A stretch of DNA of 58,850 nucleotides from Bacillota bacterium (GTDB lineage: Bacteria > Bacillota > SHA-98 > UBA4971). Location of the stretch: assembly GCA_012841305.1 (NCBI GenBank), contig DUVA01000181.1:1-58850 (forward strand), in the 5' to 3' direction. The notes below the pieces were generated by a model. The model saw only the letters and a program-made list of their open reading frames with translations. It did no database searches and was not told the DNA's origin. Shown here piece after piece: positions 1,840 through 57,385 of the stretch. A program made the position numbers and the translations under genes. Position 1 is the first letter of the stretch. Each line of letters begins with the position of its first letter.

Positions 1840-1948
1840 GTTACTGAGAACTTCTCGATGGTTTTCGCTGGTTTTCCGAGGAATTGGGTGGCCCCGCACG
1901 GTACGTACACTTTCTGGAACCGGCGATGACCTATGGTGATCTACCTGG
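1840..1948 (+). repeat. Copy A (degenerate) of the ~106-bp palindromic intergenic repeat family
   Basis: Aligns with copies at 21302, 43587 and 56217: GTTTTCGCTGGTTTTCC-CCGAGGAATTGG-GTGGCCC-CGCACGGTACGTACACTTTCTGGAACCGGCGATGACCTATGGTGATCTACCTGG. The 5' arm has diverged. Confidence 0.8.
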
Positions 1949-3308: not shown

Positions 3309-3463
3309 TCTATCTAGTGTTAAGTCTCTGAATAAATAGTAGTATACAACAAGATTCCGACAACTCCAGGCGCAGTTGCCCCTGGATATCAGGGCTTACT
3401 GCGTCTCATCCATAGTGCGCACTCCTGAGGCAATATGGCTTGCGCCTCGAGAAGTTCATGGGA

Positions 3464-20739: not shown

Positions 20740-20772
20740 CTAAGTAGATCACCAAGGGAGTCACGGTCTCCT
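20740..20772 (-). repeat. Truncated, inverted remnant of the repeat family (H-arm plus core end) overlapping the nrdG stop codon
   Basis: The minus strand reads GAGACCGTGACTCCC-TTGGTGATCTACTTAG. Compare GAGACCGTTGATTTCTCCC and ATGGAGATCTACTTAG in copy B. Confidence 0.7.
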
Positions 20773-21282
20773 GCAGGCGTCGTAGGTGTCGCTGACGACT
20801 ACCGGTGCATTTTTCTCGAGAGACTTTGCGACGTCAATTACCCTCTGGTTCCGGGAACCTCTGAAAGCAAGGCCTAGATCCCTCTCGTCTTCATAAAAAG
20901 GCCCGTCTACCAGAAGGGTCGTTAATGATAATAGGTCATGCCATGTATCCCTGGATGAGCTCACCAAATCTTCCCACACATAACCTGTATACGTAACAAT
21001 ATCCAGTGACGATGATTTCAGCATATGGCCCAACTCAGCGAAGGCTTCCGCCTGGGAAAACGGCTCTCCCCCGCTGAATGTAACCCCTTGAGCCATAGGT
21101 ACTGAACGTATCATTTGGACGACTTGACCAACATCAAATAGCTTTCCCCCGTTCGGGTCATGGGTGTCCGGGTTTTGACAGCCGGGACAACCATGGGGGC
21201 ACCCTTGCGCGTATATCACTACACGAATGCCAGGCCCGTCCACAACGCTTTCTCTTGTTATCCCGGCCAGTCTCAGTCTCAT
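20761..21282 (-). CDS. nrdG: Anaerobic ribonucleoside-triphosphate reductase activating protein (radical SAM)
   Basis: MRLRLAGITRESVVDGPGIRVVIYAQGCPHGCPGCQNP. The longer ORF to 21450 runs through the repeat element and was trimmed to the ATG at 21282. Confidence 0.85.
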   Translation of the reverse strand: MRLRLAGITRESVVDGPGIRVVIYAQGCPHGCPGCQNPDTHDPNGGKLFDVGQVVQMIRSVPMAQGVTFSGGEPFSQAEAFAELGHMLKSSSLDIVTYTGYVWEDLVSSSRDTWHDLLSLTTLLVDGPFYEDERDLGLAFRGSRNQRVIDVAKSLEKNAPVVVSDTYDACRRP

Positions 21283-21301
21283 TATGAAATCCCAGTCCCT
21301 T

Positions 21302-21614
21302 CTAAGTATGAGTTCATTAGTTTTCGCTCGTTTTCCGATTGTCTCGGGTGGCCGGTGATTGGAACGAGGGGTGTCAAAATTCGGCCACTTGCCTACGGGC
21401 CGGATTTTGTCAAGGCGACCCGCTTGGGGAGCCGTCCCCGAGTGCAACACCGGCCACCCTGCATGGCACGTACACTTTCTGGAACCGGCGATTACTCATG
21501 CTGGAGACCGTTGATTTCTCCCAATAGCTGCCAGGTATTACCCTGTTTGTCAATGTACAGTCCATATTTACATTTAACTGGGAGAAATCAACGGTCTCAT
21601 GGAGATCTACTTAG
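21302..21614 (+). repeat. Copy B of the repeat family: core plus M2 module (about 21346-21459) plus H hairpin element (21504-21598)
   Basis: Termini are CTAAGTATGAG...ATGGAGATCTACTTAG. The M2 closing stem is GGGTGGCCGGTG/CACCGGCCACCC. The H arms are GAGACCGTTGATTTCTCCC/GGGAGAAATCAACGGTCTC. Confidence 0.85.
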
Positions 21615-32808: not shown

Positions 32809-32872
32809 CTCTTACCCCCCAGCAGAAACCTGATCTCCCCCGTAGATTATACTATAGCTTGGGCATTTGTCA

Positions 32873-43586: not shown

Positions 43587-43692
43587 CTAAGTATGAGTTC
43601 ATTAGCTTTCGCTCGTTTTCCAAGGTCTTGGGTGGCCCTCAACGGTACGTACGCTTTCTGAAATCGGCGATTACTTATGGTGATCTGCTTAG
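43587..43692 (+). repeat. Copy C: minimal 106-bp unit of the palindromic repeat family
   Basis: CTAAGTATGAGTTCATTAGCTTTCGCTCGTTTTCCAAGGTCTTGGGTGGCCCTCAACGGTACGTACGCTTTCTGAAATCGGCGATTACTTATGGTGATCTGCTTAG, lying between pbp and murE. Confidence 0.85.
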
Positions 43693-48113: not shown

Positions 48114-49973
48114 TCAGCCGACTACTTCGTCGTCTACCCGGAACAGCCAGATTTCGCTATGACCGTTCATGTGTGATATGACAGCTATTTGACCCCTGAT
48201 CGACCAGGTGAATTCAGCTATCCCAGGTGCGCTTATTATCTGTTTTAATCTACCGCCACCCGAAGGGCATACTGCAAGACCTGCGGGGTTTGTCATTAGC
48301 CATTGGCCGCAAGGCGAGATTTCCAGCAAATCTCCGGCTTTCTCAGCCAGAATTCGGTGCAAGCCGTTTGATCTGTCAAAGCAATAGACAGTCTTGTTCA
48401 TTATGTAGTAGATGGACATTCCATCAGGTGATGCCTGTATTGCGCTGATGGCGCCCGGTAGTTGGAACAGTTCATTTGTGGTGCTGCCCTCTGACAATAC
48501 CAGGACACTGGAGGTTTTGTTGCCCGCGGATTGCGTTTCCAGTAATGCAAAGAATTCATAAGATCTGGAAGGACATCTGAGAGCAAGCAGAGTTCCACTC
48601 TTGACGGAGTAGAGTGTCTCATGTGAACCTGACCTTGGATCAAAGACGCCTATTTTGTATCCTCCGCTACCTCGAGCGACGTACCTAAGCACAGCGTTGT
48701 CAGGGCGCCATTCAATCTCAGAAACGGTCCATCCAGAGCCTGCGCTTTCAGCCTTCTCTTTCTTGTCGTCGGCTCTGAATAAGATTTTCCCTTTACTGAG
48801 GTATGCGAAGCTGCTCGCGTTTTTCCCCGGTTCCGGACGTTCATCCGATGGAACGTCTGTAACCTCACTGATATCGCCTGTCATTGCATCAAGCACCTTA
48901 AGCCCTTTTCCTGCCGAGACAAAGAATACTTCGCTTCCGTCAGCTGCCCATGCCGGATTCTTCGAGCCTTTGGCGCCTGCATTGAATCTTGCTATTTCTG
49001 TAAGTGGAACACCGTTATCCACAGGGGCCAACGGAGGCCTTACAGGACAAGCGATAGCCGGTAGGTAGCATGTGGGTTGGTCTCCACATGTTCTGCTGCA
49101 GGTTGCCGCGGAACCGCATGTAGGCACGCAGGTGTAATAACCTTTACAGGTGGCGCTACATGTTGACATGCCCTGGCTGCATGTGGCTGCGCACGTAGGC
49201 GTAGGACTGCATGTTGTTCCGGTTGTAGCGTGTTCAATGTCGCACCCTGATTCACACGTGGGTTGACTCCCGCATGTCTCAGCGCAAGTTGCGCCACACG
49301 TCGCGCCACAAGTTGCACTACACGTTTCCGCGCAAGTGGGGCCGGTTCCACATGTCGCGCTACATGTCGCTGTACAAGTAGGGTTAGTTCCGCACGTCGC
49401 TGCACAAGTAGGATTGGTTCCACAGGTGGCTGCGCATGTGGGGTTAGTTCCGCAAGTCGCACCGCATGTGACTACGCACGTAGGCTTTATCCCGCAGGTT
49501 ACAGCGCATGTAGACCCGCACGTCAGCCCGCAAGTGGGTTTAGTTCCGCAAGTCGCTGAGCATGTGTCTGCGCAAGTAACTTTAGTTCCGCATGTTGCAG
49601 CGCATGTAACGAGACATGTAGATGAGCATGTAGACCCGCACGTCAGCCCGCAAGTAGGTTTAGTGCCGCATGTCACGAGACAGGTGGGCGCAGTAGTAGG
49701 AGCAGGGCATATCCCGGATGTAGCCATAGGTTCTACCTGGTCGTTTTTCTCCCCTGACGAGTCGCTCTCCGGAGTCTCATATTCACTTGATTCGATACGC
49801 CAATACGGATTCTGAAGACGCTTATCCGCGAGTTCCGCCGAGTAAGCGAAAAGAGGTGAATCCATGACTTCCTCGGTAGCCTTCACCTTTGCGGCGGAAG
49901 TCCAAAACCCTACTACAAGCATGCATGAAAGCACTAGTACTACAGTCAAGAACCTTACTCTTTGTCTATTCAT
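48114..49973 (-). CDS. Secreted/anchored protein: signal-anchor, acidic linker, ~220-aa Thr-Cys ladder (about 45 Cys), Pro-rich hinge, TolB-like beta-propeller
   Basis: The ATG at 49973 lies 8 nt after AAGGAGGG, inside the end of the upstream gene (TGAAATG junction). N-terminus is MNRQRVRFLTVVLVLSCMLVVGF. The repeats are TCGTKPTCGLTCGSTC... The C-terminal part has propeller-like blades (ADGSEVFFVS, SPDGMSIYYI, SPCGQWLM). Confidence 0.8.
   Translation of the reverse strand: MNRQRVRFLTVVLVLSCMLVVGFWTSAAKVKATEEVMDSPLFAYSAELADKRLQNPYWRIESSEYETPESDSSGEKNDQVEPMATSGICPAPTTAPTCLVTCGTKPTCGLTCGSTCSSTCLVTCAATCGTKVTCADTCSATCGTKPTCGLTCGSTCAVTCGIKPTCVVTCGATCGTNPTCAATCGTNPTCAATCGTNPTCTATCSATCGTGPTCAETCSATCGATCGATCAETCGSQPTCESGCDIEHATTGTTCSPTPTCAATCSQGMSTCSATCKGYYTCVPTCGSAATCSRTCGDQPTCYLPAIACPVRPPLAPVDNGVPLTEIARFNAGAKGSKNPAWAADGSEVFFVSAGKGLKVLDAMTGDISEVTDVPSDERPEPGKNASSFAYLSKGKILFRADDKKEKAESAGSGWTVSEIEWRPDNAVLRYVARGSGGYKIGVFDPRSGSHETLYSVKSGTLLALRCPSRSYEFFALLETQSAGNKTSSVLVLSEGSTTNELFQLPGAISAIQASPDGMSIYYIMNKTVYCFDRSNGLHRILAEKAGDLLEISPCGQWLMTNPAGLAVCPSGGGRLKQIISAPGIAEFTWSIRGQIAVISHMNGHSEIWLFRVDDEVVG
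49047..49709 (-). repeat. In-frame tandem repeats encoding the Thr-Cys ladder (12-, 30- and 120-nt periodicities)
   Basis: For example, CGTNPTCAAT occurs three times (about 49380-49470), and a near-identical ~47-nt block occurs at about 49507-49553 and 49627-49675. Confidence 0.8.
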
Positions 49974-49974
49974 T

Positions 49975-52545
49975 TCATTTTCCCTCCTTTCCTTTTTCAA
50001 TCAGCCGAAACTCTAAGTCGTAGATGGACTTAAGGGTCGAGTCAGGTATCGTGGAAGTCGTTCCCATGAGTTCATCAGAGAAAAGTCTTGACGCTGCAAA
50101 TACAAAGACCTTACCTCGTCCGATTTGTTTTTCTGCAGCCACCGTCCTTTCCAGGCTATCACCCACTTGCAGATTACCGCCGGCTACTTGGTAAGTGAGG
50201 ACATGTCGCTGGATTGGTTCTCCGTCAAGGCTGATGACAGATGCGATTTTGGGTTCTTTGACGGAAAGTCCGAAATTCCGCAAGAATTCATTGGCCAATC
50301 TGTCCGAGGATCCGTTTCCATGCATAACTAACAGGTATCCACCGGATTCCACGTATTGCCTTATCATATGATATTCACGATTTGAGAAACGTTTAGCAAT
50401 ATTCATAAGCACGACGACGTCGCATTCCAGCGCCTCACGAAGAGATGCAACCCTGGGGCGGCCTTCTACCCGCTGAATCCAGGTATAGAATGTATGGTAG
50501 GCTTTGGATGAATCAAGGAATATTGTCTCCTCCGGCAGCAACATCAAGGTATGATCTCGTTCAAAAGCTACTTCCAGAGTATCGCTGCGAATCTTGGGGG
50601 GATGCCGATAAGCGGCAGAGGTGAGGCTCTGACAGGACCATATGGCCAGATAGATACCTATGAGCGCTGCAAAGGCCATAGAAGGAGCAAGTGGTGCGAA
50701 AGCACGGCCTCTTCTGCGTATAAGCAGGAAGAGCCCGCATAGCAGGACAGCCGCAGCACCTAGAAGAACTGCCGGTAACCAGGTCAGGTATGCATTGCGA
50801 TTGAGCCAACTGATCATGCCTATGAGGAGTTCCCATTTGCCCGGGATAAACATGAAGAAGTTGGACCACACTGTGCTGTCAGTGAATGCTACTACCCTTC
50901 CCTTTCCTGATGAAGCTGCAGCAGCCTGAATCAAGAGTCCATATTCCTTATCCAGATCCGGCCTGTCAGTGGCGAAGAAGTTCTCATGACTATAGTCAAG
51001 ATATAGACTCTTCACTCCATAACCTGTGATTACGCCGGAGGCAAAGGGTGATATCCCCATTGAGCAGGAAGTCGCAAATAGAAATCTCGGAAGAAGTATT
51101 GCCGCAGGGTGACGGAATATGCTACGGTCTTCGTATATTGAGAGGCCTCCGGTTCTGAGATCGTATGTGCCGTCATACTTAAAGCGTAATCCAAATCTCT
51201 CTGCAACAGGATTTAAGTACGTACTGGTTCCAAAGACATTTGTATGATCACCTACTAGGAAAAGCCCTCCGCCTTTCTTGACAAATTCGCAAATAGCGTC
51301 GATTTCTTCTTCGTTATATGCCTCAGTGGGTGTTTTCAACATCAAGATGTCACAAGTCCCGAGGAGTTCACGGGAGATCGGTGAGTCAAGGTTTTTTGCG
51401 ACGTCATAGTAATCTCGAAGATATGCTGCAAGGGAATAGTAATTGTATCCGGAATCTTCTCCGTACCATAGAGTATCGTATGGCCTGGTAGTCTTCTCCC
51501 AGATAGTGTGCTTTTCATCTATGAGGATTCTGCCCCGTTTCTTGATTCCCGGATCTCGAAATCCAAAGGCAAACACCAAAAGAAATGTGATTACACAGGC
51601 AAGAGCTTGAGGAGCCCACTGTTGGGATTGATGTTTGCCTATTTTGGCAGCTCCTTCATGCCGTTTCTTCTTTGGCGAATCTTGTGTGGTTCTTATTGGA
51701 TCTGCGGTATCTTGCGTATTATAGGTATGTGCAAATCCTTTCCAGGCCGGCATTAGGGCGAGAGGCAAGAAGCTTCCTAATACCCATGCAGGCAACCAGA
51801 ATATGTCATAGTCCCGGTATGAGACGGTAACAAGCAGAAGAAACACGTATCGTGCCAGGAAGAATGCAGCCAGAATGCTGAGGACTTCCCCGGTTTCCCG
51901 CATTATATTGATTAGGTTTCTGTTATGTTTCTTTCTTAGGATGACCTTCATGGTGATCCATCCGGCAAATACCATAATCATGAGGAGCAGGTTCAGTTTC
52001 TCCGACGTGGTGGCTAAAGTGAACTCATATCCCGGTGTGCGAATGAAAACACCATTTGCGCAAGGAGCCGCAGTTACTGAAAATATTCGAAGAAGCCAAC
52101 AGATGACCGGGTCTAAGACTTCTATGTGGTGATGACGGGACTCAAAGGCGACGAAAGACGGAAGCACGAGGGCTTGCACAGTCATGACAATTCCTGCAGT
52201 GGCAAAGCCTGCGGCAATCCTACGTAGACGATTTGCAAGAAGAGTCAAGACCAGGCCGCATGCAATGAGACAAAGGCCCAGATTTTCAGGGAACGGAATG
52301 TGCGTCGAGATAAGCACCAGCGGGACAGCGCATAGGACGTACTGCTTGAGTATGGTCCCCGAGGTATCCGCGCCTCTCGAAGAAGGGGATGAGACGCAAA
52401 ACAATACCAGCCCCATGAGCAAGGTTAACGTTCCAAGGCCACGTGAGGGGCTGTAATATGGTAGAAGCAATACCCAACTGAGTGAAAGGCTGACTATGCC
52501 TACCCATAAACCTATGGCGCTCCGTTTCCCTATCTCAATATCCAT
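49975..52545 (-). CDS. 856-aa polytopic membrane protein with two GldG/DUF4350-like extracytoplasmic alpha/beta domains (paralogue 2)
   Basis: About 10 TM segments, then domain (KKGGGLFLVGDHTNVFG...GKGRVVAFTDSTVWSN), 2 TM, then a second domain (ESGGYLLVMHGNG...GRGKVFVFAASRLFSD). Confidence 0.75.
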   Translation of the reverse strand: MDIEIGKRSAIGLWVGIVSLSLSWVLLLPYYSPSRGLGTLTLLMGLVLFCVSSPSSRGADTSGTILKQYVLCAVPLVLISTHIPFPENLGLCLIACGLVLTLLANRLRRIAAGFATAGIVMTVQALVLPSFVAFESRHHHIEVLDPVICWLLRIFSVTAAPCANGVFIRTPGYEFTLATTSEKLNLLLMIMVFAGWITMKVILRKKHNRNLINIMRETGEVLSILAAFFLARYVFLLLVTVSYRDYDIFWLPAWVLGSFLPLALMPAWKGFAHTYNTQDTADPIRTTQDSPKKKRHEGAAKIGKHQSQQWAPQALACVITFLLVFAFGFRDPGIKKRGRILIDEKHTIWEKTTRPYDTLWYGEDSGYNYYSLAAYLRDYYDVAKNLDSPISRELLGTCDILMLKTPTEAYNEEEIDAICEFVKKGGGLFLVGDHTNVFGTSTYLNPVAERFGLRFKYDGTYDLRTGGLSIYEDRSIFRHPAAILLPRFLFATSCSMGISPFASGVITGYGVKSLYLDYSHENFFATDRPDLDKEYGLLIQAAAASSGKGRVVAFTDSTVWSNFFMFIPGKWELLIGMISWLNRNAYLTWLPAVLLGAAAVLLCGLFLLIRRRGRAFAPLAPSMAFAALIGIYLAIWSCQSLTSAAYRHPPKIRSDTLEVAFERDHTLMLLPEETIFLDSSKAYHTFYTWIQRVEGRPRVASLREALECDVVVLMNIAKRFSNREYHMIRQYVESGGYLLVMHGNGSSDRLANEFLRNFGLSVKEPKIASVISLDGEPIQRHVLTYQVAGGNLQVGDSLERTVAAEKQIGRGKVFVFAASRLFSDELMGTTSTIPDSTLKSIYDLEFRLIEKGKEGK

Positions 52546-56100: not shown

Positions 56101-56460
56101 ACTAAATTCCTCCTTGTATGGCCTGGAATGCCGGTTATGGATGAACTATTATATACCAAGGTATTACATTCCTGCTATATTTTCATATACAGTTAAAAAA
56201 ACGTGGAAGGGAAATACTTAAGTATGAGTTCATGAGACCGTTGGACTTCGCCAGTAACCACCAGTTTCGCCGAAGACGTCGACCAGTCTCTGCGATTCGA
56301 GAGGGCTGTGTTAACATAATGTGGGAAAGAGCAACGGTCTCGTTCATTAGTTTTTGCTCGTTTTCTCAGGACTTGGGTTGGCGGTGATTGCAACGAGGGG
56401 TGTCAAAATTCGGCCACTAGCCTACGGGCCGGATTTTGTCAAGGCAACCCGCTTGGGGAG

Positions 56461-57263
56461 CAGGAATTCCGCAAGCGCCGTTTTTCCTGGATATATATTC
56501 GAACCAGCACTCTGGTTATGGCCGTCAGATTAAATGGGAGTCTTACCCATCTATGAGAGAGCATATAGGGCCCCCTTTCCCCTACCCGGGCGGAAGCCTT
56601 ATTGACAATCCCAAAGCTCTTTTAGGGGGGCTCAGTCGAATGGCTTGCCCGGAGAGCCATTCCGGTTTTGCTTCATGATTCTCCGCGTCTTTTGCGGGGC
56701 GATAGTTCGCGTGGTCGAAAAACAACCACCGTGAGGCTCTTTGGTGGTTGATTCTCAACCATCTTTTTCAGCGCATTCGCTTGGATGGTTGAGAATCGAC
56801 CATCTTAGGGCTTGTTAATGGTTGATTATCGACCACGATCATGCCTCCAGGGGGCAGAATATAGAACACCTCATCACAGAGAATCCCTTCACATGAAGAT
56901 TGTGGATACAAAATCGACCACATTTTTAGAAAAGGTGAACGAAAATCTACCAGCTTTTCCAATACCGTGGTAGAAAACCTTCCACCTGAGCCTCAAAGAG
57001 CTATCAAAATCCCTCTTCAGCCCAAAAATGTGGTCGAAAATCAACCACTATTGCCGTTTGGGGTGGTCGAAAACCGACCATTTTCCGGCTTTTTGCTGCA
57101 GAAATCCCAAAAGGTGGTTGAAAGTGAACCGGCGTTTTGAAAAGAGTGGTTGAAAATCGACCATGTTCATGTTAACCGTAAGCGCCAAACAGCGCCCACT
57201 GCTCCCTTGCAGTGTTCATGCTGGTTCACCACATGATACACTCTATGGCTTGCGGAATTCCTG
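56461..57263. mobile_element. 803-bp non-coding TIR-bounded insertion (MITE-like) with target-site duplication
   Basis: Perfect 16-bp inverted termini CAGGAATTCCGCAAGC/GCTTGCGGAATTCCTG. Flanking direct repeat is GCTTGGGG(AG)/GCTTGGGG(G). The empty site is seen in copy B (CGCTTGGGGAGCCGTCCCC). No ORF with an RBS lies inside. Confidence 0.8.
56711..57164. repeat. Array of 11 imperfect 19-20-bp palindromes, GTGGTYGA-N3-TCRACCAC
   Basis: Copies at 56711, 56744, 56785, 56818, 56902, 56935, 56967, 57030, 57063, 57114 and 57146. Six neighbour spacings are 32-33 bp. Confidence 0.85.
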
Positions 57264-57385
57264 GCTTGGGGGCCGTCCCCGAGTGCAACACCGGCAACCC
57301 TCAACGGTACGTATACTTTCTGGAACTGGCGATTGCTTACGGTGTTCTGCTTGGATGCACTTTTGAGGCGGCAAATAGACTGGTG

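Follow-up and report, generated by a model that had tools for sequence, protein, structure and literature searches.

The repeat of about 106 bp described here, referred to as element A, is an ordinary, previously undescribed MITE that duplicates TA on insertion. It is a new family that belongs to a well-known kind of bacterial repeat. Element A is very probably a non-coding MITE that is moved in trans, and the most likely source of the transposase is an element of the IS630/Tc1-mariner type. Its dispersal, its inverted repeats, the TA/CTAG profile of its junctions, the polymorphism between occupied and empty sites and the amplification of subfamilies are all established. The window, that is, the whole stretch of DNA that was analysed, comprises 58,850 nt of contig DUVA01000181.1 (GCA_012841305.1) from a Bacillota bacterium of an uncultured anaerobic-digester lineage. 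B, C and D denote other small elements that are nested in copies of element A.

Copies of element A in the window

Four copies of element A and one inverted remnant are present in the window, as the earlier note had claimed, with offsets of only 1-2 bases. Copy 3 (43587-43692, plus strand) lies in the pbp|murE spacer and is the intact minimal unit, matching nhmmer model positions 1-106 with E = 9e-33. It is laid out as C-TA-[element 43590-43689]-TA-G, and the sequence of the 106-bp unit reads CTAAGTATGAGTTCATTAGC...GGTGATCTGCTTAG. Copy 1 (1841-1948, plus strand), in the spacer between atoA and the ferritin-like gene, is degenerate and covers model positions 17-103; its left end has decayed, and its right TA is now TG. 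Copy 2 (21302-21614, plus strand) lies in the nrdD|nrdG spacer and is interrupted by B and a C-type element. Copy 4 (56218-57354, plus strand) lies in the ymdB|spoVS spacer and carries three nested inserts (C, B and D). The remnant (20740-20771, minus strand) is located at the 3' end of nrdG and consists of the last ~16 nt of element A (TTGGTGATCTACT-TA-G) and a C-type fragment. All four places were described earlier as full copies; each does contain the 106-bp unit, but the longer ones are units interrupted by other small elements.

The four places are recovered both by a repeat finder and by the nhmmer profile. A 28-mer from the right half of the unit, with up to 3 mismatches allowed, matches the window four times (at 1900, 21465, 43644 and 57306), always on the plus strand, and has no match in 100 shuffles of the window. 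The density of element A in the window is about one copy per 12-15 kb. The ORFs that flank the copies are all on the minus strand, so that each of the four copies runs antisense to its operon. The consensus read by eye agrees with the consensus of 24 aligned copies and with that of 127 aligned copy segments, and the central palindrome, GTACGTAC, is present at unit positions 58-65 and is conserved. The TA/CTAG target signature and the nested insertions were not part of that first account.

The nrdG gene (20761-21300) is bracketed by two inverted right ends of element A (20741-21613), which read TA-AGTAGATCACC... and ...GGAGATCTACT-TA. This arrangement resembles a composite transposon and may be a coincidence.

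Dispersal of the family

An exact core 25-mer was found at 27 loci in a collection of species-representative genomes. Fifteen of these loci are in the MAG JAPXLY01, 8 in JAAYRV01 and 3 in DGZL01 (UBA4981), all of which are labelled as Bacillota or Firmicutes, and the remaining one is on a contig binned with Marinilabiliaceae. A 19-mer from the left end of the element gave 93 metagenome loci; ~75 of them hold genuine copies, for the most part in assemblies from anaerobic digesters, and the other 18 matched by chance. Distinct junctions in the ~1 Mb of retrieved DNA number 103 on the left and 84 on the right. In total, ~100 distinct insertion sites are known from three related Bacillota MAGs and from digester metagenomes. 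The genome-wide copy search therefore identifies a dispersed intergenic family, with ~100 sites outside the window, and not the product of a local duplication. Searches of plasmid and phage collections with the unit (BLAST) gave no match, and a search of viral contigs with the left end gave only two chance matches, both inside a phage gene.

The contig binned as uncultured Marinilabiliaceae (Bacteroidota; L007, CAZHHH010000126.1) is 7 kb long and carries one full copy of element A. It is probably a mis-binned contig of Bacillota.

Many copies of element A are located at contig ends, and the family accounts for assembly breaks in these organisms. Now that the element is named and bounded, it also accounts for the oversized operon spacers of this uncultured lineage of digester Bacillota.

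Insertion junctions and target site

Alignment of full copies with their flanks gives sharp edges at CTAAG... and ...CTTAG, beyond which the flanks are unrelated. In the junction profile, the interior of element A is conserved at 95-100%, and TA is present at each junction in 93-98% of ~100 distinct ends. The base outside the left TA is C in 75% and the base outside the right TA is G in 83%, and positions farther out are random. The intermediate conservation of the outer C and G, and the stepwise fall, are as predicted by target preference with duplication, and not as predicted for sequence of the element. Element A proper is AGTATGAG...GATCTACT, about 102 bp, and reaches 106 bp when the TAs and the flanking C and G are included. 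With its TA, the left end reads TA-AGTATGAGTTCAT..., or at greater length TA-AGTATGAGTTCATTAGTTTTCGC.

Comparison of occupied and empty alleles with the MAG JAPXLY01, whose loci L011 and L003 have flanks 86-88% identical to the window, is in agreement with this boundary. The window has an unoccupied CTAG at 3314-3317, in the context TTCTAT-CTAG-TGTTAAG. At the orthologous position of L011 (1759-1970) there is a composite of element A with B, flanked by C-TA...TA-G, and the filled site minus the element and one TA has the length of the empty site in the window. A second unoccupied site, at 32830-32833, reads CTGA, in the context CC-TGA-TCTCC. Its orthologue in L003 (3300-3405) holds a full copy of element A; the lengths fit a 2-bp duplication, and the site differs at 2 bases. 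In the reverse case, copy 1 of the window is absent from the orthologous spacer of L011, which is 36 bp only. A further comparison, between L005 and L027, yielded no empty allele, as a different sequence fills the site. The two clean pairs of occupied and empty sites, one of them reading CTGA, fit insertion of element A at TA in CTAG-like sites with duplication of the TA.

The stop codon of an adjacent ORF overlaps the TA junction of element A at three loci (L001 5007-5009, L015 3408-3410 and L019 5668-5670). Such overlaps are to be expected if TAG stop codons are frequent in CTAG targets, since insertion regenerates a stop (TAA or TAG).

Terminal repeats, fold and coding capacity

The ends of element A form imperfect terminal inverted repeats (TIRs), with 14/23 positions matching after the TA (AGTA......CAT.AGT..TCGC; binomial p about 3e-4), and the inverted repeats reported earlier are therefore real. 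The description of the repeat as palindromic is correct for these imperfect TIRs and for the central palindrome but does not extend to a stable fold: compared with shuffled sequences, the whole unit has no excess stability as RNA of either strand or as DNA (z = 0.03, -0.34 and 0.14). RNAalifold on 24 unique copies gave -9.4 for the plus strand, mostly from end-to-end pairing, and -2.6 for the minus strand. On 20 copies, the consensus fold reached -13.0 kcal/mol with a covariation term of -0.8, and a two-sided change was seen in 1/29 pairs. A covariance-model scan of the whole window against Rfam at gathering threshold gave 0 hits, which bears out the earlier statement that no known Rfam family is represented. 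At E up to 10, the unit gave only a 12-bit chance match to cow-rumen-3, for which the gathering score is 86.7. No promoter-like or terminator-like sites were found within the unit.

Column conservation is 0.95 and 0.91 at the two ends and 0.86 in the middle, values that are biased by the fetching of loci with exact left-end and core patterns. On the minus strand of element A, each of the three frames meets a stop codon before 20 nt have passed. On the plus strand, two frames are open from end to end (35 codons), with no consistent start. A reading as a small ORF was rejected, as the open frames are on the plus strand only and the substitutions are not biased toward synonymous changes. Overall, there is no evidence of a structured RNA in the element A family.

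Orientation in operon spacers

The common antisense orientation in operons, noted earlier for the window, is correct there (4/4) but weakens across the family. In short spacers between co-directional ORFs, family-wide, antisense copies outnumber sense copies by 36 to 13 (p = 0.0014, from crude ORF calls), and with local GC skew as a proxy, all copies together give 40:39. The plus strand of the window is C-rich throughout. The window thus exemplifies a tendency of moderate strength in operon spacers and does not reflect a rule. Orientation relative to replication and orientation relative to transcription are inseparable here because local GC skew tracks the coding strand, and the trend may arise from selection after insertion or from an effect of replication. 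Since the minus strand has stops in all frames, an element in the common orientation cannot extend the upstream ORF, which is a speculative contributor to the bias.

Elements nested in element A

B is an element of 104 bp with the ends GGTGATTGCA...TGCAACACC, and it abuts element A in 51/55 hits. It is placed after about position 51 of element A in all copies checked, and in the orientation of element A in all copies compared. It occurs in copy 2 of the window (21353-21456, 104 bp), in copy 4 (56382-56461 and 57263-57295, again at position 51, split by D) and at L011, L019, L021, L023 and L025.

C is another MITE, about 108 bp long; its terminal repeat is GAGACCGTTG, and it makes a 6-bp target duplication that is specific to each copy (ATAGTG, ATGGCG and others). 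In copy 4 it lies at 56234-56341 (108 bp), after position 16 of element A, with the duplication GTTCAT. In copy 2, a C-type element of 95 bp with GAGACCGTTG terminal repeats lies at 21504-21598, after position 96, and its flanks, ATGCTG and ATGGAG, represent a decayed 6-bp duplication of ATGGTG. The insertion point of C directly follows ..CAT and is equivalent in the two TIRs of element A (positions 16 and 96), and both orientations occur. It also occurs outside the window (L002, L004, L005, L022, L024, L062, L093 and others), and it was almost never found away from element A in the DNA examined, all loci of which were chosen for containing element A. Chimeras composed of positions 1-16 of element A, C and positions 91-106 of element A are present at L086, L103 and L105.

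D is a non-coding element of 801 bp that lies inside B in copy 4 (56462-57262). It has the terminal repeats AGGAATTCCGCAAGC and a target duplication of about 8 bp (GCTTGGGG), and fragments of its ends occur at L041, L089, L103 and L105. D contains ten copies of a 19-bp dyad, RTGGTYGAAAAYCRACCAY, and this array looks like a set of protein-binding sites.

It can be tentatively hypothesized that element A is the base of a hierarchy of mobile elements in which C uses the TIRs of element A as a specific landing site, a proposal judged somewhat less probable than its opposite. If it is true, each insertion of C splits a TIR, and C, as a hyperparasite, would disable the MITE that hosts it. Recombination between two copies of C would then produce chimeras in which nothing but the outer 16 bp remains at each end. 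Such position-specific nesting in the TIRs of element A would show, in a natural setting, one mobile element targeting another.

At L103 (7700-7790) and L105 (1350-1450), a 430-aa ORF is preceded by short direct repeats (..ATCATCAAGGCCTGCCT.. units) that come after a truncated left half of element A.

Re-amplified forms and differences among strains

A 70-bp derivative, in which positions 1-17 are joined to positions 53-106 and both ends are kept, is present at three loci of JAAYRV01 (L009 5650-5719, L010 5766-5835 and L026 2042-2113). The occurrence of this form at three loci implies that the shortened element spread on its own. The composite of element A with B (211 bp) is found in the window and, in JAPXLY01, at four or more loci, with B parts that are 95-98% identical and in the same position and orientation. 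This points to one insertion of B that would have been followed by amplification of the 211-bp composite.

Strain loci were fetched through exact matches to the SpoVS and MraZ proteins. Copy 3 is fixed within the species of the window, being identical in 10 strains that are ~99.6% identical to the window. At the site of copy 4, strain ERZ2847836 (L032 2830-2890), whose flanks are 99.5% identical to the window, carries a short degenerate copy with no C, B or D inserts, and this allele is locally much more divergent than its flanks. The difference between the two alleles suggests recombination or recent activity of elements in the spacer. Differences in presence and absence could be used as strain markers.

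Upstream of mraZ, a repeat-rich ORF (48114-50000 of the window) contains tandem units of 30/42 nt at 49308-49674. Strains that share ~99.6% identity elsewhere (L133-L142) differ in the length of this ORF, which ranges between 579 and 667 aa.

Proposed mechanism and alternative explanations

In the mechanism proposed, a DDE transposase from an autonomous insertion sequence, acting in trans, would excise element A and paste it elsewhere. The element carries imperfect TIRs of ~23 bp at its ends. Integration would take place at TA, preferably within 5'-CTAG-3', and the TA would be duplicated, so that copies read C-TA-(AGTATGAG...GATCTACT)-TA-G. After insertion in short spacers, copies would decay, lose internal parts or receive other small elements, and some of the resulting forms, such as the 211-bp composite and the 70-bp deletion form, would be re-amplified as units.

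The generic features of a MITE are all present: element A is small and non-coding, it has TIRs and a target duplication, and its dispersed copies differ in presence and absence. The features of an IS630-type target were found as well, namely the duplication of TA, the outer C (75%) and G (83%) and one empty site that is exactly CTAG. Elements of the IS630 family insert at TA and duplicate it (PMC2170065), and imperfect repeats of ~24 bp are sufficient in cis for ISY100 (PMC2170065). PMC2170065 cites Tenzen and Ohtsubo (1991) for a preference of IS630 for TA within CTAG. RUP, a 107-bp TA-targeting MITE of S. pneumoniae, is attributed to IS630-Spn1 (PMC2229807). As the TA/CTAG signature is a hallmark of IS630/Tc1-mariner elements, this superfamily is the likeliest source of the transposase, which would be of the IS630 type, and element A may still be mobile. 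The signature predicts that such a transposase is, or formerly was, active in the lineage. Against this explanation, the TIRs are weak, the whole unit has no excess fold stability, the clean pairs of occupied and empty sites number two, one of them with CTGA, and the CTAG palindrome alone leaves the 36:13 orientation bias unexplained.

The ~1 Mb of retrieved loci, which come from MAGs and short contigs that hold IS copies poorly, yielded no autonomous element whose ends match, and neither did the viral, plasmid and phage collections. A scan of the 1 Mb for TA-flanked pairs of inverted repeats 0.8-2.2 kb apart gave a sole clean pair, on an unrelated contig that was a chance hit. Every copy with only one half was checked for a parent, and all either lie beside ordinary genes or are themselves rearranged copies. 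A zinc-ribbon ORF beside a right half at L020 was considered as a TnpB-type context and rejected, as the ORF is 50 aa long and surrounded by housekeeping genes.

Duplication of TA at YTAG-like sites is known from other transposases too, including those of the IS427/IS1301 group (IS5 family), and the target of IS1301 is AYTAG. It is possible, although unlikely, that element A is a MITE mobilised by a transposase outside the IS630 family, for which this group is the candidate. The TA duplication and the C-TA-G preference also fit this group, and no parent was found by which to choose between an IS630 and an IS5-family source. The balance is shifted toward IS630 by two points: TA within CTAG is its textbook target (Tenzen and Ohtsubo 1991, via PMC2170065), and RUP, the closest analogue in size and target, is linked to IS630 (PMC2229807).

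Two further explanations dispense with a MITE altogether. The copies could be a structured non-coding or cis-regulatory RNA, such as an antisense sRNA or an element that processes or stabilises mRNA, with its many copies maintained by selection rather than by transposition. This would agree with the antisense orientation of 4/4 window copies and of the family in co-directional spacers (36:13), with the roughly 90% conservation of core positions 57-80 and with a small hairpin at 83-99 that tolerates changes from U-G to C-G. It is nevertheless very improbable, as the folds equal those of shuffled sequences on both strands, the covariation term is only -0.8 kcal/mol, a double change is seen in 1/29 pairs, and the unit has neither an Rfam match beyond the 12-bit chance hit nor a promoter-like or terminator-like site. 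Interior deletions and insertions are also tolerated and such forms are re-amplified, insertion sites vary among related genomes, and the orientation bias is gone by the GC-skew proxy over all copies (40:39). Alternatively, element A could be a REP/BIME-like repeat or a PATE derived from IS200/IS605, which a Y1/HUH transposase (RAYT or TnpA) would mobilise in single-stranded form. Such an origin would explain an orientation bias tied to replication, and a bias in operon spacers is seen, with 4/4 window copies on the C-rich strand, which is presumed to be lagging-strand sequence. However, these families make no target duplication, and the 2-bp TA duplication of element A largely refutes the idea. 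Stable terminal or subterminal hairpins are lacking (z -0.34 to 0.14), C-TA on one side mirrors TA-G on the other and no conserved target of 4-5 nt lies 5' of one end only, the IS605-type RNA families in Rfam gave no hit, and over all copies there is no net orientation bias relative to GC skew. This explanation is scarcely credible, the least probable of those considered. Mobilisation of element A as a MITE by an IS630-type transposase is the preferred explanation.

Comparison with known repeat families

REP/BIME and ERIC repeats can be targets for specific insertion sequences. Like element A, they are short intergenic repeats of operon spacers with orientation biases. REPs are GC-rich stable hairpins of 20-40 nt that are linked to RAYT and make no TA duplication, whereas element A has no hairpin and has the TA/CTAG signature.

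IS630, ISY100 and Tc1/mariner elements, with MITEs of the Stowaway type, share with element A the TA duplication, imperfect repeats of ~24 bp and, in IS630, the preference for CTAG (PMC2170065). These elements are autonomous, 1.0-1.3 kb long and encode a DDE transposase, whereas element A is ~100 bp and encodes nothing.

Correia/NEMIS elements of Neisseria resemble element A in having 100-155 bp, TIRs, TA duplication and hundreds of copies (PMC2229807). They are also often located in operon spacers and co-transcribed, with no known cognate transposase (PMC2229807), which is a further likeness. The TIRs of Correia elements are long (24-26 bp), nearly perfect and form hairpins that RNase III cleaves, and these elements carry IHF sites and promoters. 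In contrast, the TIRs of element A are weak (14/23), and no stable hairpin, promoter or terminator was found in it.

RUP is close to element A in size (107 vs 106 bp, with the TA and the flanking C/G counted), and each is a non-coding intergenic repeat with many copies in a host from the Bacillota. Both also have short imperfect TIRs, insert at TA and are associated with other mobile elements (PMC2229807). The TIRs of RUP are found in IS630-Spn1 as well, whereas no cognate IS was found for element A. RUP inserts into IS elements, while element A is instead the target of other MITEs, and the hosts differ, being S. pneumoniae for RUP and an uncultured anaerobic-digester lineage for element A. 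The likeness to RUP is claimed for size, target and kind only; the earlier note had not recognised the sequence as RUP.

The earlier note had placed the repeat outside BOX, RUP, REP/BIME, Correia and Rfam. There is indeed no Rfam match and the stable GC-rich palindrome of REP/BIME is lacking, but that note set RUP and Correia aside by sequence and not by kind. The findings on element A leave the understanding of how such repeats work unchanged. Its novelty holds at the level of the family, while its anatomy is that of a classical bacterial MITE of the RUP and Correia kind.
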